From contig CAVRSV010000016.1 of assembly GCA_963723965.1 (NCBI GenBank), positions 36,923-100,922 of the forward strand: a DNA stretch of 64,000 nt. The letters are read 5' to 3'. The notes under the pieces were generated by a model. It was not told where the DNA came from and ran no database searches. It saw nothing but the letters and a program-made list of their open reading frames with translations. Within the stretch, counting starts at the first letter, position 1. Every line of letters begins with the position of its first letter. A program made the position numbers and the translations under genes. This document shows, in pieces, positions 1-63,310 of this stretch. This DNA comes from an uncultured Acidobacteriota bacterium (GTDB lineage Bacteria > Acidobacteriota > UBA6911 > RPQK01 > JAPXNP01).

Positions 1-229
1 GCCGGGGGAGACACCCTGCCGAGTCGATCCCGATACCACGGAGTGCCGGGGCCCGATCCTCCCCGGTTCTTCGGCGAGGCGCGACTCCAATCGGCCTCCG
101 TGTGCGGAGACGCGGGGGCGGTCAGAACGTGAACGAAGTGAGCGTCCCGCCCCGCAACGACACCCGTCTCTCCCCGGGCCACTGCGGCAAGACCGTGGTT
201 GCGCGCCCTCCCGCCGCGTACCTGCCGCT

Positions 230-375
230 CGCGAGCCGTATCATCGATTGCCGCCGTCCCGGCGAGCCGATTCCCACGCCCCGAGGTGAACCGCTTCCAC
301 GCCGCCAAGGTACGCCAAGCCGCCAGTCCCAGAAGGATCTCTTGCGGCTTTGCGTACTTCGCGTCTTTGCGTGAG
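230..375 (+). repeat. Family-B intergenic repeat, copy 1 (core ...tcttgcggctttgcgtacttcgcgtctttgcgtgagac...)
   Basis: Shares a 50-60 nt core (cctttgcggcgttgcgtacttcgcggcttggcgtgagatca) plus upstream cgattcc..gtacgccaagccgcc with copies near 22.3, 27.8, 38.8 and 49.3 kb. Confidence 0.6.
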
Positions 376-497
376 ACCCGGTCCGGCAGGCGTCACGTGG
401 CCGGCCGGGATCCCGCCGCGGTAGACGGGTCGGGGCAGGCTGGACACGCCCGGTGTGACGCTCACTGGCGTTCGCGTTCTGATCGGAACCCGGGACT

Positions 498-6633: not shown

Positions 6634-6774
6634 ATTTTCGATTTGCGATTTTCGATTGGCCGCAACGAGCGCACAGATGCGCAGGGAAGGCTTGTGAGAT
6701 GATCCCGGAGGGTCGCACCGAGGCCCTCGAGGGCGGGGTTTCGGGAAGCGGAGCGGCAAGGAGCCCCGGCGAGC

Positions 6775-22189: not shown

Positions 22190-22640
22190 GAAGGCGGGGC
22201 AACCTCAGGGCGCCTACAGTTTCGAGTTTCGGGTTTCGAGTTTCGAGGGCGTGTTGCCCAAATCCTCCCGAGGTGGTCACAATCGTGCCACCCGGTCGTC
22301 GAGACCTGCCGAACCGATTCCACGCAAAGACGCAGAGTACGCCAAGCCGCCGCCCCCAGAGAATTCCTTTGCGGTGTTGCGTGAGATCAAGCCACCGAAA
22401 CCTCGCTCCGAGGGGGACGTACGCACTGATCCGAGGCAACGGCCATCCGGGCAACACCCCCCGAAACTCGAAACCAGGAACCCGAAACTCGGAACCCGTT
22501 CTCCCGACCTGAAACCCGAAACGCCAAAGGACCAACGCCGAAGGGAAATGTGCGAAGCGCCAGCTCGAAACTCGGAACCGGGAACTCGGAATCAACTGGG
22601 CACTTTCCCGTTTGACATCGCAAACCGATTCCCACATTGT
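22190..22640. repeat. Family-B MITE-like element copy 2 (TIRs 22244-22262 and 22443-22462; core has an internal deletion) flanked by CGAAACT-type 7-mer micro-tandems
   Basis: gggcgtgttgcccaaat ... gagaattcctttgcggtgttgcgtgagatcaagccaccga ... gggcaacacccccc, with gtttcgagtttcgggtttcgag arrays on both sides. Confidence 0.65.
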
Positions 22641-24086: not shown

Positions 24087-25404
24087 ATGACCAGGCAACG
24101 ACTCGATTCCGACCCTGCGCTTCCCAGAAAGCCCATCGACCGGTTGCTGCGGCCGCTGGAACGCTTCCTCCATGTGGAAGCCGCCAGTGGAGTGGTGCTG
24201 CTCCTCTGCACCGTTCTCGCTCTGGCCCTGGCCAATTCGCCGCTGGGCGATTCCTATGAAGCGATCTGGCAGACCAAGATCGGCTTTCAGCTGGGTGATT
24301 TCCAGATGGTGCACAAGCTGCGCCACTGGATCAACGACGGCCTGATGGTGATCTTCTTCTTCGTCATCGGCCTCGAGGTCAAACGCGAACTGGTGCAGGG
24401 GGAGCTTCGCGAACTGCGCCGCTCGACGCTGCCCCTATTGGCCGCCCTCGGAGGGATGGTCGTGCCGGCTGCGATCTTTCTCGGGCTGCAGGCCGGGACG
24501 CCCGCAGCGGCGGGGTGGGGCATCCCCATGGCGACCGACATCGCCTTCGTTGTGGGCTGCATGGCTTTGCTGGGTTCCCGGGTTCCACATGGATTGCGGG
24601 TCCTGATTCTCACCCTCGCCATCGCAGACGACATCGGCGCCATTCTCGTCATCGCCGTCGGCTACACCGAGGAGCTGCTGTTCGGAATTTTGATCGTCGG
24701 TCTCCTGCTGACGGCGTGCGTTCTGCTGTTCGAGCGTCTCGGAGTTCGGAGCATGACGGTCTACGCGCTGCTCGGACTCGGGATCTGGTACTGCTTCCAC
24801 GAATCGGGAGTTCACGCCACGATTGCCGGCGTGATCCTGGGACTGCTGACCCCAGCCGAGGCCTATCTGGACACCTCCGTTCTCGGGCAGTTCCTGAAGA
24901 AAGTGGGTGGCAGTTTTTCACGGAGAAGAGGATGCGCCGCTCAACAAAGTGGGACGGGTGAAGGCCGTGCGGCAGTTGAGCCGGGAGGCGGTCTCCCCTC
25001 TGAGCTACCTCGAGGACGCGCTCCATCCCTGGGTCGGCTTCGTGATCATGCCGGTCTTCGCCCTGGCCAACGCCGGCGTCGAATTCAGTGCGGGGGATCT
25101 GGCCAGTCCGGTGGCGCTCGCGGTGGCACTGGGCCTTCTGCTCGGCAAACCGGTCGGCATCGTTCTCTTCAGCTGGGTTGCCGTTCGCGCCGGAATTGCG
25201 GCCCTGCCCTCCGGTGTCAACTGGCGAATCCTGACCGGGGGGGCCTTGTTGGCCGGGATCGGCTTTACCATGGCCCTGTTCATCGCGGGCCTCGCTCTGG
25301 AAGGCGATCTGCTCTCCGCGTCCAAGGTCGGAATCCTGGTTGGCTCGGCCGTCTCCGCCATGGGCGGAATGCTCATCCTGACCCGGAGCCTGAGTGCTCG
25401 CTAG
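24087..25404 (+). pseudogene. nhaA: Na+/H+ antiporter NhaA interrupted by a frameshift near 24896-24925 (T5 run)
   Basis: Frame 0 from ATG 24087 is NhaA-like up to ...GVILGLLTP. The conserved continuation ...SPLSYLEDALHPWVGFVIMPVFALANAGVEF... to the C-terminus is in frame +1 (ORF 24907..25404). The shift lies at cagtttttcac. Confidence 0.7.
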
Positions 25405-27008
25405 AACTTCGCGAAGAAGTCGTTTCCCTTGTCGTCCACCAGGATGAAGGCCGGGAAATCCTCGACTTCGATCTTCCAGATCGCTTCCATCCCCAGCTCC
25501 GGATAGTCGAGGACCTCGACGCTGCGGATCGAATCCCGGGCCAGAATCGCGGCGGGACCTCCGATGCTTCCCAGGTAGAAGCCGCCGTGGCTACGGCAGG
25601 CATCGGTCACCACCTGAGAGCGGTTTCCCTTGGCGATCATGACCATGGAGCCTCCATGGGACTGGAAGAGGTCCACATAGGGATCCATGCGCCCGGCCGT
25701 CGTCGGTCCGAAGGAGCCGGACGGCATTCCCGGCGGGGTCTTGGCCGGGCCGGCGTAATAGACCGGGTGGCGCTTGAAGTAATCGGGCAGATCTTCTCCG
25801 CGGTCCAGACGCTCCTTCAGACGGGCGTGGGCGATATCGCGAGCCACCACCATCGTTCCCTTCAGGGAAAGGCGCGTGGCCACGGGATAACGGGTCAGCT
25901 GCGCCAGAATCTCAGGCATGGGCCGGTTGAGGTCCACGGTCACCGGTTCGCCCGCTTCCTCGGCCGTCGCTTCGAGGAGCCAACGCTCCGGGTTCTCGTC
26001 CAGCTGTTCGATCCAGAGACCCTGCCGGTTGATCTTGGCTTTGACGTTGCGGTCGGCCGAGCAGGAGACGCCCATTCCGACGGGACAGGAGGCACCGTGG
26101 CGGGGAAGGCGGACTACCCGGATGTCGTGGGCGAAGTACCTGCCCCCGAACTGGGCCCCAATGCCGCTCGCTCGCGCCGCCTCCAGCAGACGGGATTCCA
26201 GGTCGTGGTCGCGAAAGGCACGGCCCAGCTCGTTGCCGCTGGCCGGCAGCGCGTCGAGGTAACCGGTGGAGGCCAGTTTGACGGTCTTCAAGCAGGCTTC
26301 GGCGCTGGTCCCTCCGATGACGAAGGCGACATGATAGGGAGGGCAGGCCGCCGTGCCCAGCGTCTTCATCTTCTCCACCAGGAACCGTTCCAGGCTCTCC
26401 GGGTTGAGGAGCGCCTTGGTCTGCTGGAACAGGTAGGTCTTATTGGCGGAACCGCCGCCCTTGGCGATGAACAGGAAATGGTATTCACCTCCGGTCGCGG
26501 CGTAGACATCGATCTGCGCCGGAAGATTGGTGCCCGAGTTCTTTTCCTCGTACAGGCTGAGGGGGACGGTCTGGGAATAACGCAGGTTTTCACCCGTGTA
26601 GGCCTCGAACACGCCGCGGCTGAGGGCTTCCCGATCGTCGCCTCCGGTCAGGACGTACTGCCCCTTCTTGGCGGAGATCGTGGCCGTTCCCGTGTCCTGG
26701 CAGAAGGGAAGCTGCCGCCCCGCGGACACGACGGCGTTCTTCAGCAGAGTCCGCGCCACGAAACGGTCGTTGTCGGATGCCTCCGGGTCCGAGAGGATCG
26801 CCGCCACCTTGGCGTTGTGGCTGGGGCGAAGGAAAAACGACACGTAGCGAAAGGCCTCGCGGGCCAGAAACGTGAGCCCCTCCGGCTCGACCTGCAGGAA
26901 TTCGGCGCCGGCGCCGCTGACGGTGCTGACGAACCGGTCGGTCAGGAATTTGTACTGAGTCTCGTCGCTTTCGAGGGGGAAGGGATCCTGATACTGGAAC
27001 GTGGCCAT
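25401..27008 (-). CDS. fumA: Class I fumarate hydratase (single-chain Fe-S hydro-lyase, FumA/FumB type)
   Basis: About 535 aa. [24 protein letters not shown]...[10 protein letters not shown]...[25 protein letters not shown] before ATG 27008 (ORF track start uses TTG). Confidence 0.9.
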
Positions 27009-27099
27009 TTCGTATCCTCTCAATCTGCAGGTTCAAGTCCAGATCCAATCTTCGACCCGACAGCCCACGGATGCAAGTCCGCAACGGTGTTCCGGACTT

Positions 27100-27620
27100 C
27101 CGAGGCTCCGCCCCCCGCTTCACCCTTTGAGCGGCTGTCTCCACCGACGCCGCAGGCGTCCCTGGAGTGCGGAAGCTCGCTTCCGCTTTCGATTCGCCCG
27201 GCGCAGCGCATACCGGCTCGCACAGCCGGGCCGCCGAGCCATCCCCGCCGAAACCCGGGGAGCACCCGCAAGCCGAGGCCTCTCCGAAGAAAGCGGCAGC
27301 AAGCTGCCGCAGTCCAAGGCGGCTTCGCCGCGGTGCCGGAGCAGCTCAGTCCGAAGCGGCTCGGCCGCACTCTTCCTCCTCCGACGCCGCAGGCGTCCTT
27401 GGAGCGCGGAAGCTTGCTTCCGCTTTCGATTCGCCCGGCGCACGCATACCGGCTCGCACAGCCGAGCCGCCGAGCCATCCCCGCCGAAGCCCGGGGAGCA
27501 CCCGCAAACCGAGGCCTCTCCGGAGAAAGCGGTAGCAAGCTACCGCAGTCCAAAGCGGCTGCGCCGCGGTGGCGGAGCAGCTCCATCCAGACCGGCCGCG
27601 CTGCAACCGGAAATGTCGGG
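27100..27620. repeat. Family-C multi-hairpin repeat, two tandem about 230-bp units
   Basis: Units 27120-27350 and 27350-27600 are about 90% identical. Each carries hairpins GCGGAAGC-tc-GCTTCCGC and GCGGCAGC-aa-GCTGCCGC. Also present at 36.7-36.96 kb and 48.65-49.0 kb. Confidence 0.8.
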
Positions 27621-27639
27621 CACGGGGCATTCGATACCG

Positions 27640-27955
27640 GCTGAATTCCGCTCTCCCCGGAACCTCGGAACCCGGAACCTCGGAACCCGGGGGCGTGTTG
27701 CCCAAATGGCTGCGGCCTCCGATCGGCGTGCCCCCACTGGAGTGAGGTCTCGGCAGCCTGATCTCACGCGAAGCCGCGAAGTACGCCACGCCGCAAGGAG
27801 ATTCTTTGTGGGTGGCGGCTTGGCGTCCTTCTTTGCGCCGTTGCGTGGAACCAACCCGCCGTGCATTCGCCTGCCTGGCAGCGTCCGATCCAGCGAAACC
27901 CTTCCTTTTTGGGCAACACGCCCCCGGAACGCGGAACCCGAAACCGCGGGCGCCC
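27640..27955 (-). repeat. Family-B MITE-like element copy 3 (inverted orientation; TIRs 27690-27710 / 27903-27922) with GGAACC(T/C)CG micro-tandems
   Basis: gggggcgtgttgcccaaatgg ... reverse complement of the core ... tttgggcaacacgcccccgg. ggaacctcggaacccggaacctcggaaccc on the left flank. Confidence 0.7.
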
Positions 27956-28494
27956 TACTTGCGCTCGTCGTCCAACTTGCGCAGCTGGCGCAGGATCGAC
28001 AGCAGCGTCGGCTTTTCCTTCATCTGCTCCCGCAACCGCCCCATGACGGCTTCGGGGCTCCACTGATCGGCGGCCTCCTCGATCAGCTGCATGCGCCGCT
28101 GGTCGGTGCTGAATTTCTTGCGCAGGCGGACTGCATAGGCGTCCATGAGCACCTCGAGCAGCTTGTCCATCTCGCAGGGCTTGGACAGATATCCGTAGGC
28201 GCCGAGTTTGGTGCACTCCACCGCCGAGTCGATCGAGCCGTGGCCCGTCAGGATGATGACTTCCAGAAAATCGTGCTCCTGTTTGAGGATCCGCAGCACT
28301 TCCCGGCCGTCCATTCCAGGCATCTTGAGATCCAGGAGTGCCAGATCGAATTTTCCGGTACGGGCGGCCTCGATGGCGGCGGCGCCGCTGGAAGCCTTCG
28401 TCACAGCGAAATCCCTCAATTCCAGGCGTTTGCTGATGGAATCGAGGAACTTCAGTTCGTCGTCGACGATCAGCAGCTTGATTCTTTCCGTCAT
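27955..28494 (-). CDS. Response regulator, receiver domain plus short C-terminal helical tail (no DNA-binding domain)
   Basis: MTERIKLLIVDDE...DLALLDLKMPGMDG...IILTGHGS. Start placed at the internal ATG 28494. Confidence 0.8.
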   Translation of the reverse strand: MTERIKLLIVDDELKFLDSISKRLELRDFAVTKASSGAAAIEAARTGKFDLALLDLKMPGMDGREVLRILKQEHDFLEVIILTGHGSIDSAVECTKLGAYGYLSKPCEMDKLLEVLMDAYAVRLRKKFSTDQRRMQLIEEAADQWSPEAVMGRLREQMKEKPTLLSILRQLRKLDDERK

Positions 28495-28513
28495 TTCCAG
28501 GGTCTCCCGAAGG

Positions 28514-30544
28514 TTAGAAACCGATCCATTGCCAGTAGCCGTAGAACACCCAGATCCAGAGGACGAGGAACGAGAGGACCAGCATGGCCGCTCCGTGTTT
28601 GAGAAAGTCCCCCAGTGTGACCAGTTGCTCGCCCGTGACGGGATCCTTGCAGAGAGCGTAGGCGATCGCGTTGTTCGGAGTCCCGATGACCAACATGTGG
28701 GCAAAGGACGAGGCGAAGGCCGTGGCCAGACCGACCATCCAGGGATGGGTCTGGGTAATGGTCGCCATGGGGATCGTGATCGGTCCGATCGCCGAGACCG
28801 TGGCCCCGTCGCTCATGAAGTTGGTCGTCAGACCGGTGAACAGGCTGGTGGCCATGGCCAAACCCGTGCCGCTCTGCATGAAGGCCGGCAGAATTCCTAC
28901 GAACCAGTCGGCCAGGTAGAGGGCGGCTCCGGTCACGGCAAGACCCTTGCCCAGGGCGGCGGCACTGGCGTAGAGAAAGACGACGTCCCAGGGAATGGCG
29001 ACGATGTCCCTCCACCTCAACACTCGCAGTATGTTGAGCATCACGATGCAGAGAATCGCCGGTCCACCCATGCCGTACCGGTCGCTGACCGTGACCCACA
29101 GAACCACCAGCAGGATGAGGACGGGGGTGGCCCGGATCTCCAGACTGTTCATCGGGCCGATGCGCTCGGCCGCCTCGCGCACGATGGCCGACACGTTCAG
29201 GTTGCGCACGCGCAGCTTCCGTCGGAAGGCCAGGTAGAAGTATCCCCCCGCCACCAGCGCCATGACCGGAACGAATGGCAGTCCGTAGGCTACCCACTGC
29301 CCGAACGTGGGAGCCATGCCGTAGTCGCTCAGAATGGCCAGCATGACCGCGTTCCGACCGCCTGCAGCGGGCGAGCCGGGACCGCCCGAATTGCCGACGA
29401 AGCAGAGCATGAGGGCGAACAGCACCGCGAGGTGTCGGTCCTCGGAGACCCTCGAATGCCGGAGCGACGAGGCGTAGACCATCATGAACAGCGGCATCAT
29501 GAAGGCGACCAGGGCATGCTCGGAAATGAACGAGCAGGCCACGGCAAACATGGGCAGGAACAGGAAGAGCACCATGTTGAGCGACTTCACGGGCCCCAGC
29601 AGCAGAACCCCGATCCGGCGGTCGAGTCCCGTCTTGGTCATGGCCCGTGCAATCGCCAGCACGCCGAAGATGAAGATCACGGCATCTTTGGCGTAGGCGG
29701 CCGCTACCTCGTCCGGCTGCAACACGCCGAGGAAATACATCGAGACTCCGACCAGCAGGGCCGTAATGCCGATCGGGATGGCTCCCGTCGCCCAGAACAG
29801 GGCGGCTACGAGCAGGGTGGCCAGCATGACCTGGGCCCGATAGGCCGACTGGTGGGGCGTCATGGAGTACCGCGCCCTTTGCCCCTCGCTGGCCGGCGTG
29901 AGGGTTCCCACCTTGTACTTCTGGCTGTAGAAATCGGCAATGTTCTGCCCCGGAGCCATGCTCCGGTAATCGGCGTAGCCGTGGCTGAGGTCGGTGACGT
30001 TGCCTGTCTTGGGGGTCCCGACCAGCTGGAGGAGCCGCGCCGGTGCGGGCACCAACACGACGACGAGAAACAGGAGCAAACCGAGGATGATCACGCCGGG
30101 CCGGCTGTTGTGGGAGCCGACCAGCCAGGTCCGCAGCGACCGGGCCAGGTGGGGAATCTCATGCCGGGCCATGGCATGGAGCTTGGCTTCCCGGGCCGCG
30201 TCGATGGTCTGCACCAGCGTCCCGATATCGCAGGGCTTTTCCAGATAGGCGAAGGCGTCGTGCCGGCCCGTTTCCATGGCCGACTCGAGGCTGCCGTGGC
30301 CGGTCAGCATGATGACCTGGACGGCGGGCCGATAGTTCTTGAGTTCCTTGAGGACCTCGTCTCCGGTCATCCCCGGCATCTTGAGATCGAGCACGACCAC
30401 CTCGATCTCGGGATCGTTGCGGGCGATTCGGATCGCCTCTTCGCCGCTGTCCACGTCGAGGGTGTCATAGTTCCTGAGTCTGAGCCGCTTTGCCAGAGAC
30501 TGGCGGAAACCCGTCTCATCGTCGACCAAGAGTACTTTCCCCAT
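28514..30544 (-). CDS. Receiver (REC) domain fused to an ArsB/NhaD-superfamily (SLC13/DASS-like) anion permease
   Basis: N-terminus MGKVLLVDDETGF...VVLDLKMPGMTGDE...IMLTGHGS is a REC domain with the phospho-acceptor Asp context. It is followed by about 500 aa with more than 10 TM helices and glycine-rich hairpin loops (GNSGGPGSPAAGGRNA). Confidence 0.75.
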   Translation of the reverse strand: MGKVLLVDDETGFRQSLAKRLRLRNYDTLDVDSGEEAIRIARNDPEIEVVVLDLKMPGMTGDEVLKELKNYRPAVQVIMLTGHGSLESAMETGRHDAFAYLEKPCDIGTLVQTIDAAREAKLHAMARHEIPHLARSLRTWLVGSHNSRPGVIILGLLLFLVVVLVPAPARLLQLVGTPKTGNVTDLSHGYADYRSMAPGQNIADFYSQKYKVGTLTPASEGQRARYSMTPHQSAYRAQVMLATLLVAALFWATGAIPIGITALLVGVSMYFLGVLQPDEVAAAYAKDAVIFIFGVLAIARAMTKTGLDRRIGVLLLGPVKSLNMVLFLFLPMFAVACSFISEHALVAFMMPLFMMVYASSLRHSRVSEDRHLAVLFALMLCFVGNSGGPGSPAAGGRNAVMLAILSDYGMAPTFGQWVAYGLPFVPVMALVAGGYFYLAFRRKLRVRNLNVSAIVREAAERIGPMNSLEIRATPVLILLVVLWVTVSDRYGMGGPAILCIVMLNILRVLRWRDIVAIPWDVVFLYASAAALGKGLAVTGAALYLADWFVGILPAFMQSGTGLAMATSLFTGLTTNFMSDGATVSAIGPITIPMATITQTHPWMVGLATAFASSFAHMLVIGTPNNAIAYALCKDPVTGEQLVTLGDFLKHGAAMLVLSFLVLWIWVFYGYWQWIGF

Positions 30545-30619
30545 AGCCTCGCTACCCGATCCGCAGGGGCCGCCGGCTCGACCGGCCGCCGCCGTGTCCA
30601 TTTCCGATGTGAAGGAACT

Positions 30620-32320
30620 CTACGTACTCCGCCCGATGGGAAGAGTGATCGTAAACGTGCTGCCTTCGCCGAGATTGCTTTCTACGTCGATCGATCCGCC
30701 CAGGTCCTTGATGATCCCGTAACTGACCGATAGTCCCAGTCCGGTTCCTTTTCCCACCTCCTTGGTCGTATAGAAGGGTACGAAGATCTTGCCCAGCTGC
30801 TCCTGGCTCATGCCCCGGCCGGTGTCGGCCACCGAGATCTCAACCTTCGCTCCGGCCCTGCGTACCCCGACCGTGATCGTGCCCGCCCGGCCCCCGAGTG
30901 CATCCACGGCATTGTTGAGGAGGTTCAGGAGAACCTGCTGCAGCTGATTCGTGTCGGTCAAGACCGGGGGCACGTCGGCCGCGAAGTCGCGGACGATTTC
31001 GATGTTCGAGACGGCCAGTTCGGGACCGAGCAATCCGTCGAGGACCTCGTCGATGACCGTCGCCAGATCCTGGGCGCGAAGTTCCACGCTGGTCTTGCGT
31101 ACGAAGCCCAGCAGCTTGTGGGTGATATTGCGACAGCGCAGGACCGATTCCTCGATGTTGTCCAGATGGGGACGCAGCTCCTGAGCGGGAGTCGGTTCCC
31201 CGAAGGCCGGGTCCATCAGATCCTTGATCAATCCGGCTTCCTCGTTGATGACTGCCAGCGGATTGTTGATTTCATGCGCGATGCCGGCGGCCAGTTCGCC
31301 GACCGAGGCCAGCTTTGAGGCATGGGCCAGCTGGGCCTGGGCCCGATCGCTGGACTTCTGGAGCTCGACCAGCTTGTCGGCGCGACTGAAGATCATGACT
31401 GTGATCAGGCCGATGAGGACCGCCGAGAAGAGCAGCAGCGTGCGCAGCGGCCGGGCCAGGAATCCGGCCGTCGCGGAATTCTGCGGCTGGACGATCAGTG
31501 CCCAGTCGGCCTGTCTGAGCCAGGAATAGGCATAGAAGACCGAAGCGCTTCCGATTCTCACCCACTCCGCGCCGAGCCGGGGTTCGGTCGGAGGCACGAT
31601 CGCCGAGGTCTCCAGGAGCGTGCCCATGTGGGGGGTGACCAGCTGGTAATAACCCTCCTTGTTCACGATGGACAGCAGGAGCTCGTTGTCCCCCTGAAGC
31701 GATCGGATGTAGTCGTAGATTCGTTCCGGGTCGAGCGTGGCTCGCAGGATCGGCCGATCGTGCCCGGACTGACCCTTGACGGCAATCGTGAAGTGCGGTC
31801 GCTGCCGGAATCCCAGGTAGATGTCGGTGATGACGAAATCCTGGTCCGGCCGGCTGAGGGTCTGAAACCAGGATTCGGAGCTGTAGTTGCGGTTCTCGAG
31901 GGACTGGTGGGGGCCGGCGTAGGAGGCCTGGATCCCGCGGGGATCGAAGTATCCGACGTCGACGAAGGTTTCGCTGCTCTTGACCAGTTCCTGGAGGAAG
32001 CCCTGCATCGCCGTCGACGAATGGTCTTCCAGAAAGCGCGGATCGTTGACCAGGTTCCTCAGATTGACGACCCGTTCGGTCAGGAACAGGTTGAGGGTGT
32101 TCGCCTGGTTTTCCGCGATGGCCGTCAGGTGCAGACGGCGGCTTTCTGAAATCAGGCTCTGATATTCGACGGTGAAGTAGAAGACCAGAATGACGAGGGG
32201 CGCGACGTACGTGAAGAGAAGACGCAGGATCTGGCGACGCCGGAACTCCCGGTAATGCTCATCCCCGAAGGGAAGGAAGTCCGCAAGCGAGGGCCATTTG
32301 GCAGCTGACACCTTGCCCAT
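30620..32320 (-). CDS. Sensor histidine kinase with periplasmic double-Cache-like domain, HisKA and HATPase_c
   Basis: TM, about 280-aa extracytoplasmic domain, TM. H-box AHEINNPLAVI. N/G boxes LLNNAVDA...DTGRGM...GTGLGLSVS. RBS GGAAGGGG before ATG 32320. Confidence 0.85.
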   Translation of the reverse strand: MGKVSAAKWPSLADFLPFGDEHYREFRRRQILRLLFTYVAPLVILVFYFTVEYQSLISESRRLHLTAIAENQANTLNLFLTERVVNLRNLVNDPRFLEDHSSTAMQGFLQELVKSSETFVDVGYFDPRGIQASYAGPHQSLENRNYSSESWFQTLSRPDQDFVITDIYLGFRQRPHFTIAVKGQSGHDRPILRATLDPERIYDYIRSLQGDNELLLSIVNKEGYYQLVTPHMGTLLETSAIVPPTEPRLGAEWVRIGSASVFYAYSWLRQADWALIVQPQNSATAGFLARPLRTLLLFSAVLIGLITVMIFSRADKLVELQKSSDRAQAQLAHASKLASVGELAAGIAHEINNPLAVINEEAGLIKDLMDPAFGEPTPAQELRPHLDNIEESVLRCRNITHKLLGFVRKTSVELRAQDLATVIDEVLDGLLGPELAVSNIEIVRDFAADVPPVLTDTNQLQQVLLNLLNNAVDALGGRAGTITVGVRRAGAKVEISVADTGRGMSQEQLGKIFVPFYTTKEVGKGTGLGLSVSYGIIKDLGGSIDVESNLGEGSTFTITLPIGRST

Positions 32321-32439
32321 TTCGTAGCCCCTTCCACTATCGAAAAAGGCGGCAGCGCCCACCGCCCCCCATCGTGTAACATCGAACGCTCTGGAAAGTC
32401 AACGGGTTCCGGAGCCCGGCCAGACGGTTTTCCAGGAGT

Positions 32440-32590
32440 GCCGGGGCTCCCTGGTTCCCGAGGAGTCTGAGAGCAAGATCCACCCCCAACTCCCCTCCCC
32501 CGGTCCTCCCGGTCCTCCGGCCCTCCCGTCCTCCGCGCTCCCTCCCGTCCTCCGGTCCTCCGGTCCTCCCGTCCTCCTCCTCCCTCTCAG
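32440..32590. repeat. Pyrimidine-rich simple repeat (CCGGTCCTC)n on plus, i.e. (GAGGACCGG)n in the 5' region of the minus-strand kinase operon
   Basis: ccggtcctcccggtcctccggccctcccgtcctccgcgctccctcccgtcctccggtcctccggtcctcccgtcctcc, about 12 degenerate units. Confidence 0.85.
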
Positions 32591-33039
32591 CTCCCGATGA
32601 GCTCCCGCACCTCCGCCACCAGCTTCTCCGGATCGATCGGTTTGTCGATGAACTTTTCGGGCTTGACCAGGCCCTCCTCACGCATCTGCCGGATCGTCTT
32701 CTTGAGGCTCTCCCGGAGGCTGTCGTAGGGGCGCTCGAGAGTGTCGGCGTCGGCGCGGTTTTCGTCCTCCTCCAAAACGTCGGCGACCGCGGTCAGCATG
32801 ATCACGGGAATGTGGCGATATCGCTCGTCCTTGCGCAACTGCTTGAACAGTAGAAACCCGCTGCGCTTCGGCATCATCACATCGAGCAGGATCAGATCGG
32901 GCTGGGTCTCCTCGACTTTCTGGAATCCCTCCTCGCCGTCGCCGGCCGCGGTCGGTTCGTAGCCCCCCTCGCGCAGGGCAACCGACAGGAATTTAACGGT
33001 GTTCTCATCGTCGTCGACGACCAACACTTTCTTCGACAT
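32587..33039 (-). CDS. Single-domain response regulator (CheY-like)
   Basis: MSKKVLVVDDDENTVKF...LILLDVMMPKRSGF...IMLTAV. RBS GAGGAGGAG 4 nt before the ATG. Overlaps the upstream kinase by 32 nt. Confidence 0.8.
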   Translation of the reverse strand: MSKKVLVVDDDENTVKFLSVALREGGYEPTAAGDGEEGFQKVEETQPDLILLDVMMPKRSGFLLFKQLRKDERYRHIPVIMLTAVADVLEEDENRADADTLERPYDSLRESLKKTIRQMREEGLVKPEKFIDKPIDPEKLVAEVRELIGS

Positions 33040-34945: not shown

Positions 34946-35332
34946 GGTTTCCCAGGGCTTTGAACGGCTTACCTCGCCGGAGTTCGGCCCGCCTCCGGAC
35001 GAGGAGAGACACCTAGATGATACAGATCAGGACCGGTCCTGAATACAGGGAAGGATCGATCGGGACGCAGTTGAGAAAGGCGGCGGGGGGCATCCGGGCG
35101 CACCGGGAATCGGCAGGAGAACCTGCGCTGACCGATTCACGAAAAGCAGAATGTCCCCTTCACTCGACTCCCGAAACTCGAAACTCGAAACCCTGCCGGG
35201 GCCCGACAGTGTTCGATTCGCGACAGGGGTTCGGGGGACGGGGCCTGATAGAATGATCCTCAACACGAGTCGGGAGGGCCGCAGCGCTCTCCTTCCTTTT
35301 TGATCAATCGCAGATTCGCTGGAGGTTCTCCT

Positions 35333-36370: not shown

Positions 36371-36960
36371 CGGGATTTTCGATTTTCGATGGCCGAATTT
36401 CGATGGCCGATTTTCGATTCGAGCCGTGGCCGGCGAGGGTAATCCAGGCTTCCAGCCTGGCATGTCCAGCGGGCTTCCAGCCCGCCCGGTGCCCTTCCGG
36501 CCCGTCGGGCCAGACTCCATCGGAGGGGGATCTTCCAGAGAGAAGATCACCGCTTTCCTGAGGTTCGTCCTCAGTGGCGAATGGCCGCAACGAAGGGCCG
36601 GGTCGACCGGGAAGAGCCGGGACTCACCTGCCTGTCGGGAGGTTCGGTGGATCGGATCGCCGGACGGATCGCGAACCACGTTGTCGGAATCACTGTCGAC
36701 CACGAGGGTCCCGTGCGCTCCGTTCATGACCGCCGACTTGCGGGGCAGGCTGGAAGTGCGGGAGCTCGCTCCCGCCATCGATCCACCCCGGACGCCCATG
36801 CCGACTCGCACCGCCGGCCGGCGACCAGCCCCCGCCGAAGCCCGGGAGACCCCCCGACCGAGGCCCCTCCTCGGAAAGCGGCAGCAAGCTGCCGCCGTCG
36901 CGCGCCCACGAGCGCCGCGGCAGCGTGGCAGCTCAATCCAAAGCGGCTGCGGCACCGAAT
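36365..36960. repeat. 7-mer micro-tandem (GATTTTC/GATGGCC) followed by Family-C multi-hairpin repeat copy
   Basis: gattttcgattttcgatggccgaatttcgatggccgattttcgattcgag. Then a C-type unit with gaaagcggcagcaagctgccgcc. Confidence 0.7.
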
Positions 36961-38699: not shown

Positions 38700-38930
38700 G
38701 AAGGGTACCATCGGCGGATTTGAGATTTGAGATTTGAGATTTACGATTTGGAGGCGCAAAGGGTAAGGGTTGTGTTGGATCGGGCAGTGGCAGGCAGGCA
38801 AATGCACGGCGGGCCGCCACCAACAAAGAATCCCTTTGCGGCGTTGCGTACTTCGCGGCTTGGCGTGAGATCAGGCTGCCGAGCCCTCACTCCAGTGGCG
38901 GCACACCGATCGGAGGCCGCCGCGGCTGTG
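38700..38930 (+). repeat. GATTTGA 7-mer micro-tandem plus Family-B repeat copy 4
   Basis: ggatttgagatttgagatttgagatttacgatttgg. Then ...caaagaatccctttgcggcgttgcgtacttcgcggcttggcgtgagatcaggctgccgagccctcactccagtggcggcac. Confidence 0.7.
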
Positions 38931-48597: not shown

Positions 48598-49000
48598 AGA
48601 TGATCTGAGATTTACGATTTACGATTTACGATTTGGGGGCGGACCGGGAGCTGGAAGGCGTGTCTTCCCAATTCACCGGGGCCCTGGAATTCGCCTCCGA
48701 CGCCGCAGGCGCCCTTGGGGCGCGGGAGCTTGCTCCCGCTGTCGAGCCGCCCGGGACGCCCATCCCGACACGCATCGCCGGCTCGCCGACCGACTCCCGC
48801 CGAAGCCCGGGAGTACCCACGACCGAGGCCCCTCCACCGAAAGCGGCAGCAAGCTACCGCAGTCCAAGGCGGCTTCGCCGCGGTGGCGGAGCAGGTCAAT
48901 CCCAAAGCGGCTTCGCCGCGGTGGCGGAGCAGGTTAATTCCAAGGCGGCTTGGCCGCGCTGCCACAACAGTTCAATTCAAACCGTCTGCGCCGCGCGCTT
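48598..49000. repeat. GATTTAC 7-mer micro-tandem plus Family-C multi-hairpin repeat with an internal 40-bp duplication
   Basis: gatctgagatttacgatttacgatttacgatttgg. The C-unit ends with aggcggcttcgccgcggtggcggagcaggt repeated twice. Confidence 0.75.
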
Positions 49001-49071
49001 CCTTCCCGACGGCGCTTGGCGATGTGTCTTCTTGCATATGTCCTGCATCCGTCGGACAATCTTCGTCGGCG

Positions 49072-49260
49072 ATGGCAAAGTTCCGTCGAGTCGCGGGCAC
49101 CTGTCCTCACTGCCGGCAGAAAACCCTCCGTCTCCAGTCCAGAGACGGGTGGGATTTCGAGTATACCGTTGTCTCCTCCGTCACCTTGTTCCTGCTCTAT
49201 CTGGTTAATTGGTTTCCGCCGATTGGCTGGGCTCCCTTGTACCGGAAGGAGTTCCGGTAG
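49072..49260 (+). CDS. Hypothetical small protein with N-terminal CxxC...CxxC-like zinc ribbon and one TM helix
   Basis: 62 aa, MAKFRRVAGTCPHCRQKTLRLQSRDGWDFEYTVVSSVTLFLLYLVNWFPPIGWAPLYRKEFR. GC3-biased codons. No clear RBS. Lies between repeat copies. Confidence 0.3.
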   Translation: MAKFRRVAGTCPHCRQKTLRLQSRDGWDFEYTVVSSVTLFLLYLVNWFPPIGWAPLYRKEFR

Positions 49261-49289
49261 CTCTGTGGCAACTGCGGGCGCGTTTATCC

Positions 49290-49450
49290 CTGCGACGGGA
49301 CCCCTGGAAGGAATGCAAAGCCGCCGCCCACATAGAATCCCTTTGCGGCGTTGCGTACTTTGCGACTTGGCGTGAGATCAAGCTACCGAAACCACTCTCC
49401 AGTGGGAGCGGACGCACCAGACCAACGCCACGGCCATTTGGGCAACACGC
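49290..49450 (+). repeat. Family-B repeat copy 5 (right TIR catttgggcaacacgcccccg present)
   Basis: ...catagaatccctttgcggcgttgcgtactttgcgacttggcgtgagatcaagctaccgaaaccactctccagtgggagcggacgcacc...atttgggcaacacgccccc. Confidence 0.7.
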
Positions 49451-49590
49451 CCCCGCATTTCGAGTTCCCGAGAACCGTCACGCGCGAATCGTTATAATTC
49501 CGTGCAGAGCGCCCACGCAGGGCAAAATCGTCAATCTCAAAAGGCAAGTCTCAAATCCTGTACCGTCTTGCGCCGGATGGAGGAGGCCAG

Positions 49591-57788: not shown

Positions 57789-57976
57789 TTCGGCGGAGGC
57801 GTTCGTCAGGCAAGTCAGGCCCCGGGACCTGCGAAGGGTCCTTTAGAGATCGCCCCTTCCGGTTCCCATTTCGGACTTCGGACCTCGGACTTAGAACCGG
57901 AGACGGCGGCTGATGCTCGGAGCGGGAGCGGTTGCCGCGGTGAACCTCCTCCTGATGATGATCACCTCCTTTTGAA

Positions 57977-62734: not shown

Positions 62735-63310
62735 GCACCCTCCTCTCGCCCGGTCCGTTCTCGTTCGGAACCGGACGTCCGTCTCCCCCTGAGATTGTCA
62801 ACTACGAATCGTGGTAGAAGTTACCTCTCAAGTCAATGATTATTTGGGAATTGCACGAAAACCTCTACAGCGCCGTTCGCCGGGGGGAGCCCGTCGACAC
62901 TTCCGGCTCCACGAGTCCGGATCCAGGTTGTCACGAGTGCCGGTCTCCTATCAGAGTGAGGACAAGAAGGGATGGCAGGTCGTCCGATGAAGGTGCACAT
63001 GGTGGCAATTCTGGCGGCGCCGTCGGGGCGATGCTCACGTCGAGATGCTGGAGAAGGTGGAGAATCCTGAGCTTCGCGCCCTCATCGAGAGCATGACTCG
63101 AGCGGGAGGGAAACGCGGCAGACAATAGGGGACACTCCGGTCGACGCTATTGTCGAGGGAGCTCTTTGTGGCCCTCAGGCGTTCAAGGCCCAGGCCTGCA
63201 GCCTGCCACCTGCCTTTCAGTTCGTACTTCGGACCTCGCCCTTTCTCCTTCTCAGTTCGCCCGTCGCCCTTCGTCCTTCGGACTTCTCTCCTTCGCCATC
63301 TCCTGCTACG

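Follow-up and report, generated by a model that had tools for sequence, protein, structure and literature searches.

A probable lineage-specific MITE with IS1182-type termini and a recently inserted copy in an uncultured Acidobacteriota bacterium

We found that a 64,000-nucleotide stretch of chromosomal DNA from an uncultured Acidobacteriota bacterium (hereafter, the window) carries five copies of a repeat, family B, which is very probably a lineage-specific, non-coding MITE of about 230 bp whose ends are recognised by the transposases of one IS1182-family subgroup. The element is small and non-coding, has inverted termini and a target-site duplication, and occurs as dispersed copies with unrelated flanks; moreover, it is present or absent with exact junctions, and its termini are shared with a transposase-encoding autonomous element. 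The initial annotation had named a non-autonomous transposable element among several possible identities, and this is the one borne out by the inverted termini, the 4-bp duplication, the presence/absence polymorphism and the ends identical to those of autonomous IS1182-family elements.

Family-B copies in the window

A search with an nhmmer profile built from the copies placed family B at exactly five positions in the window, 228-418, 22244-22454, 27698-27926 (opposite strand), 38748-38924 and 49287-49445. BLAST and a repeat search of the 64-kb window gave the same picture, in agreement with the five copies of a repeat of about 200 bp that had been reported at the outset. The copies are as follows:

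22247-22461, plus strand: copy 1 (focal), an old, decayed MITE of about 215 bp; left terminus 22247-22262 matches GGGCGTGTTGCCCAAA 16/16
27691-27923, minus strand: copy 2, an intact 233-bp MITE, recent insertion; 16-bp termini perfect at both ends
38748-38924, plus strand: copy 3, an immobile relic; nhmmer E = 1e-45
49287-49452, plus strand: copy 4, a 5'-truncated right part; right terminus 49437-49452 perfect
228-418, plus strand: copy 5, a diverged central hairpin region only, termini absent; nhmmer E = 3e-31

The 19-nt terminus, with at most one mismatch, matched four times in the 64-kb window against 0.03 expected, and the 45-nt core, with at most two mismatches, matched twice against 0 expected. 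The exact 19-mers lie at 27689-27707 and 49436-49454, and their one-mismatch partners at 27907-27925 and 22245-22263. The 19-bp terminal inverted repeats of the initial annotation therefore hold as inverted termini, but not as perfect 19-mers at both ends. When the terminus is taken as a 16-mer plus a 4-bp duplication, 27691-27923 is perfect at both ends; the 16-mer is found 16/16 at both ends of this copy, at 22247 and at 49452. Two copies had been credited with perfect termini: 27691-27923 retains them as 16-mers, but the right terminus of 22247-22461 (22446-22461) carries three mismatches. The latter copy also lacks 17 nt internally and has lost a clean duplication; it is found as well in L151, a 99.1%-identical strain. 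An internal deletion had been assigned to one copy, but 38748-38924 lacks about 37 nt too, together with its right terminus, and its left terminus apparently contains a 7-nt gap. Altogether, one of the five copies (27691-27923) is intact and, besides the focal copy, the remaining three lack one or both termini. The four decayed copies are relics of greater age, in which a terminus has been lost or mutated, the element is truncated or part of the interior is missing. It counts against the MITE explanation that the duplication is intact in only one of the five.

The family-B unit is about 230 bp long, the window copies with both ends measuring 215-233 bp, and the alignment of the copies has a conserved centre, GCCGCC...CA.A....TTGCGG...GCGTGAGA. 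The unit is non-coding: no ORF is confined to it, and indels between the copies, for example the 17-nt deletion, have lengths not divisible by three. As initially annotated, all five copies are intergenic, each lying in a gap between long ORFs with Pfam domains, and the flanks of separate copies are unrelated. The genes beside them are ordinary housekeeping genes, encoding a GH9 cellulase, an MFS transporter, a sulfatase, a fumarase, a response regulator, a rhodanese, a radical-SAM enzyme and methyltransferases. We also observed an ORF ending at 49260 (plus strand) which, from a possible ATG at 49072, would encode a 62-aa product bearing a CxxC motif and a hydrophobic tail; the ORF sits between a copy of a second repeat, family A, and the truncated family-B copy 49287-49452, which starts just past its stop codon.

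Copy 2 as a precise and recent insertion

Lying within a heptamer array, copy 2 begins 28 bp past the stop codon of a gene for a 179-aa response regulator (27955-28494). The features at this site are:

27687-27690, no strand: CCGG target-site duplication, left (direct sequence reading)
27924-27927, no strand: CCGG target-site duplication, right (direct sequence reading)
27656-27690, continuing at 27924-27945, no strand: heptamer array (CGGAACC-type) hit by copy 2 (Tandem Repeats Finder)

The initial annotation had advised a search for target-site duplications, and CCGG was indeed read on both sides of 27691-27923. Excising this copy together with one CCGG restores an unbroken GGAACNN heptamer array, as is seen in empty sites. 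These sites came from contigs of other assemblies that encode the identical 179-aa regulator. In L146, which is 99.2% identical, the site is filled and the element occupies the corresponding position. The contigs L148, L149 and L150, on the other hand, carry the same regulator and an uninterrupted GGTTCCG-type array with no element, running from the regulator gene through the array into the sequence found beyond the element in the window. The DNA of L148 is 99.79% identical to the window, and the alignment ends at 27922 and restarts at 27691, which are the element's own boundaries. Since three independent assemblies show the empty site, an assembly artefact is unlikely. These results show that the copy at 27691-27923 is a precise and recent insertion; precise excision is the less likely reading. 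Filled and empty alleles in 99.8%-identical strains make this a clean, datable case of ongoing MITE transposition, and uncultured soil Acidobacteriota are a setting in which mobile DNA is poorly catalogued. Further empty sites were sought by exact-protein look-ups with the rhodanese, the sulfatase and the 267-aa methyltransferase, and no record was found. Short-read contigs of close strains (L024 and L152) end at repeat-bearing gaps, as is expected of multi-copy repeats.

Termini common to IS1182-type elements

When metagenomes were scanned for the 17-nt right end TTTGGGCAACACGCCCC, at least 120 loci were returned. Among the matches listed, 117 unique ends are followed by unrelated interiors of widely differing base composition; in these ends, conservation of the terminus goes just two bases deeper into the element and breaks off precisely at its outer edge. 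Among the matches listed, 42 unique elements carry both ends, 30 of them 130-334 bp long and 12 of them 1552-1673 bp long, and a thirteenth long element of 1542 bp (L105) was seen among the matches listed at a looser mismatch setting. By tblastn, the long elements contain a homologous single-ORF transposase. The three transposases tested, of 479-505 aa, scored 309.7, 315.7 and 319.7 bits on the NCBIfam model of the IS1182 family, NF033551 (cut-off 270), and also matched Pfam DUF772 and DDE_Tnp_1_6. The names of the transposase clusters give only 'transposase'. The transposases are 38-72% identical to the reference one, yet the terminus is unchanged. Members of the IS1182 family range from about 1.3 to 1.9 kb, and the long elements among the matches listed fit it with their 1542-1673 bp, 16-bp termini and 4-bp duplications. 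This IS1182-type family is abundant in metagenomes, chiefly on IS-sized contigs. Thus, one terminus of 16-17 nt is common to divergent IS1182-type transposases and to many unrelated short elements in very different metagenomes, and it can serve as a practical marker for annotating elements, for explaining contig breaks in short-read MAGs and for masking spurious ORFs.

The flanks of these elements fix the length of the duplication. Among the matches listed, an exact 4-bp duplication, counted with the outermost G/C, borders 14 of the 42 unique paired elements (0.16 expected), and the inner two flanking base pairs are identical in 21 of the 42 (2.6 expected), at shift 0 only. A multi-copy IS of 1547 bp (L153-L158) is present as two independent insertions flanked by CTCG/CTCG and ACTG/ACTG, indicating that its ends are GGGCG...CGCCC and that the duplication is 4 bp. 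The same flanks ruled out a 2-bp duplication with GGGG/CCCC ends. A sigma-54 promoter or a tmRNA-like start had also been considered for the terminus; judged by eye from spacing and sequence, neither seemed to apply, and both were dropped.

The initial annotation had suggested a search for an autonomous parent with a transposase. Same-ended IS1182 elements do exist in metagenomes, but a tblastn search found no IS1182 transposase in the 64-kb window or in any of the fetched loci of the lineage. Moreover, inward of the 16-19 terminal bases no sequence is common to family B and the IS copies, and family B is not a simple deletion derivative of any IS examined here. These points weigh against the MITE explanation. 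For the multi-copy IS P0137, contig gene content comprises PATR and N_methyl proteins and gives no pointer to this lineage.

Mobilisation in trans by a transposase of this IS1182 subgroup, with the cognate transposase in the host population, is the inference best supported by these data. A transposase supplied in trans would bind both 16-bp termini and cut the element out or copy it, and insertion with a 4-bp staggered cut would leave the 4-bp duplication. The targets in this lineage are the short heptamer arrays that fill intergenic regions. The intact copy (27691-27923) represents a recent event, and the four others, which lack a terminus or internal sequence, are no longer mobile.

Two further observations were made on the surroundings of these elements. 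Many short and long same-terminus elements from the metagenomes (L026-L145) show recurring flank motifs in either orientation, such as CCGTAGCCTT/GGCGAAGG and GGGGCAGTGTCG/CAAGATGCGCCC. The elements may thus prefer other GC-rich repeats or hairpins as insertion sites, or be enclosed by a second outer repeat. In L154-L158 (contigs of ERZ25039540 and ERZ25039473), the 1547-bp IS with the ACTG duplication has the same junction in all five loci, and Pfam searches placed a small helix-turn-helix gene (HTH_23) and a DDE_3 gene on each side of it; the IS may be nested in a second multi-copy element and copied along with it.

Copies in related genomes

We scanned a genome collection with one genome per species, in which the source genome is not among the species representatives, using a degenerate pattern of the core. 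Of the 19 matches, 15 were single chance matches in unrelated taxa, and the real ones were L003, L005, L013 and L016. The former three are loci of one Acidobacteriota MAG, MFD05684.bin.1.85, and L016 is a 1.6-kb contig binned elsewhere. Additional copies were found in L146, and the further copies in the MAG, L016 and L146 lie at non-syntenic sites. The refuting possibility that copies are confined to the window locus is thus excluded by further copies in the MAG of a related species. The relatives' copies have the same termini and flanking arrays and are 88-93% identical to copy 2 of the window, and the genes flanking the MAG copies are unrelated to those in the window, which makes these copies independent insertions. 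The boundaries of the element are discrete and identical across independent assemblies and in another species. Internal family-B sequence was found only in this acidobacterial lineage, and the syntenic loci L020 and L022, from two relatives, have no family-B copy.

The window encodes a class I fumarase (25401-27023, minus strand) that matches a protein of GCA_964577915.1 at 100% identity and, at the protein level, the fumarase of the related species at 86%; the named relatives are Acidobacteriota. With copies 88-93% identical against 86% for this enzyme, drift of dead copies alone would be insufficient, which counts against the MITE explanation in its simplest form, and continued activity, transfer or selection is needed. 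Such close likeness across species is suggestive of ongoing activity or of transfer, and selection may also act on the foldback.

Foldback structure and alternative explanations

In the intact copy, the left and right halves pair over almost the full length into a rod with a folding energy of -128.4 kcal/mol (z = -6.2 relative to shuffled sequences). The fold of the opposite strand is almost as stable, as is expected of a DNA palindrome. A structured sRNA family had been among the identities first proposed, and family B could accordingly be a set of structured small RNAs or cis-regulatory hairpins, such as transcript stabilisers or terminators, in which the foldback is functional and the termini are incidental. 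The near-complete rod of 237 nt with its z of -6.2 speaks for this, as do the position of copy 2 just behind the regulator stop codon (28 bp), the high sequence identity of copies between species, and the pairing of about 80% of cells across ten copies compared with 34-42% for slid partners. However, this pairing is inherited from the family consensus, and the covariance analysis across copies that the initial annotation had proposed gave values within the shuffle range (51/500, 89/500 and 100/500 for the MFE rod, with limited power from only ten sequences). An Rfam search gave no match at the gathering score and only chance-level ones (E about 0.4-0.7), so that family B was not recognised as an RNA family, nor as part of a larger known repeat, which had been named as a refuting outcome. 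Furthermore, the orientation to flanking genes is mixed (parallel to the genes at two sites, antisense to them at a third and between divergent genes at a fourth), the rod forms about equally well from either strand, the truncation points are arbitrary, copy 2 is absent in 99.8%-identical strains, and a scan of the two best copies found no promoter-like or terminator-like site inside the element. The sRNA reading thus finds no support, and we consider it very unlikely that family B is of this kind.

The same scan gave no support to the protein-binding regulatory module of the initial annotation, other than as a transposase site: nothing was found inside the element. A related proposal, that family B is a protein-binding or architectural module maintained by the host like REP/BIME and spread by recombination instead of transposition, would agree with the occurrence of copies in long intergenic regions, as parts of mosaics that also include family A and heptamer arrays, and with their coincidence with synteny breaks relative to L020, L022 and L146. 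It is likewise very unlikely: the conserved part is exactly the terminus common to IS1182 elements, with conservation ending at the last base; the 4-bp duplication and the precise empty sites bear the mark of transposition rather than recombination; and REP-like units of 20-40 bp are absent from family B. Some copies are partial and adjoin other repeats, as they would if no discrete element existed and the copies were leftovers of segmental duplication or assembly artefacts. This has next to no chance of being right, given the discrete boundaries identical in independent assemblies and another species, the unrelated flanks between copies and the exact junctions of filled and empty alleles.

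The MITE explanation leaves room for a later role in the host. It is conceivable, albeit unlikely, that the lineage has co-opted family B and the hypervariable heptamer arrays, either as a system of recombination sites or landing pads by which gene blocks are reshuffled, or as transcript-end hairpins that tune neighbouring operons. Pointers in this direction are the pairing of about 80% kept in every copy, the 88-93% identity between species, and the finding of a copy at each of the synteny breaks observed, among them one end of the inverted 4.4-kb block with a sensor kinase, a transporter and a regulator.

Comparison with known elements

IS1182-derived MITEs of 160-169 bp with 4-bp direct repeats, partnered by ISMac2, have been described in Methanosarcina acetivorans (PMC3852290). 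Family B is like them in being short, non-coding and multi-copy, with IS1182-type inverted termini and 4-bp direct repeats. It differs from them in the domain of life, in its unrelated sequence and in its length (about 230 versus 160-169 bp); it is also a nearly full-length foldback, unlike the Methanosarcina MITEs, and ISs with its ends are known here only from metagenome loci. ISPse1, of the IS1182 family, is 1653 bp long with 16/16 inverted repeats and a direct repeat of 4 (PMC3281130). The long same-terminus elements resemble ISPse1 and IS1182 (NF033551) in their 1.54-1.67 kb, single transposase ORF, 16-bp termini and 4-bp duplications, whereas family B, unlike IS1182-family ISs, itself encodes nothing. 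The terminus string GGGCGTGTTGCCCAAA was not found in the literature searched.

The Correia elements of Neisseria and the ERIC/IRU elements of enterobacteria are likewise intergenic, hairpin-forming and MITE-like, with lengths of 100-250 bp, and can be co-transcribed with their neighbours; effects on transcripts have been described for both. Their termini, target sites and presumed transposase families differ from those of family B. REP/BIME elements with RAYT transposases, which are linked to Y1 transposases, share with family B the occurrence as abundant intergenic palindromic repeats in mosaics. REPs are 20-40 bp long and tagged GTAG or CGTC (PMC3733652). Family B, in contrast, is about 230 bp long, with IS1182-type inverted ends (GGGCGTG...) and 4-bp duplications. 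Taken together, family B is an ordinary, well-documented kind of genome parasite, a new lineage-specific member with unusually clean evidence of recent movement, and the known working of MITEs is unchanged by these results.

Heptamer arrays, family A and nearby rearrangements

Each copy in the window and the related loci adjoins tandem arrays of 7-8-bp units, which on the two sides are in the same orientation or inverted. These arrays and the family-A repeats are located as follows:

22218-22247, no strand: heptamer array AGTTTCG adjoining copy 1, mirrored by CCCGAAA at 22460-22498 on the other side
6634-6657, 22218-22247, 22460-22498, 22564-22591, 27656-27690, 32496-32577, 35172-35191, 36374-36419, 38717-38750, 48609-48634, 57870-57892 and 63256-63297: tandem arrays
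27141-27613 (two tandem units), 36730-36950 and 48694-49003: family A repeat, unit about 236 nt

Nearly every gap between long ORFs carries a short tandem array of 7-8 bp, and the unit changes from gap to gap (AGTTTCG, CGGAACC, GATTTGA, GATTTAC, ATTTTCG, TCCTCCGG and others). In the relatives L020, L022 and L025, arrays of other units occupy the same intergenic positions. The number of units varies between strains that are 99-99.8% identical, and the arrays beside copy 1 differ in this way in the 99.1%-identical strain L151. The arrays resemble the STRR heptamers of cyanobacteria. A similar likeness is seen to the TAACTGA repeats of Beggiatoaceae (PMC4679880).

Family A is made up of GC-rich hairpins, for example GCGGCAGCAAGCTGCCGC and GCGGAAGCTCGCTTCCGC, with T-rich runs behind them, was flagged as terminator-like by the scan, and adjoins family-B copies at two sites. 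The three-gene block at 27955-32362 encodes the 179-aa response regulator, a fusion of a regulator with a CitMHS transporter, and a dCache histidine kinase. In L020 (5424-9788) and L022 (5355-9724), from two related genomes, its orientation with respect to the fumarase is the opposite of that in the window. The breakpoints of this inversion lie in the repeat-filled gap 27024-27954 and at the 8-mer array at 32363-32595. L146 (3541-4598, 99.2%) tracks the window from 27954 to 27024 through family B into family A and then diverges inside the repeat, indicating that the repeats mark junctions of strain-level rearrangement. Past the divergence, L146 carries a second, truncated family-B copy and an S4-domain gene in place of the fumarase. 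L025 (1-440) comes from a relative with 88% identity, and its gap upstream of the fumarase contains long inverted arrays with a 15-16-bp unit, GAACGGGAGGACCGGA/CCCGTCCTCCCGGNCAC. These arrays are followed by the right terminus TTTGGGCAACACGCCCC on a different internal sequence, and then by heptamers and a promoter-like site, TTGACC-N17-TAGAAT.
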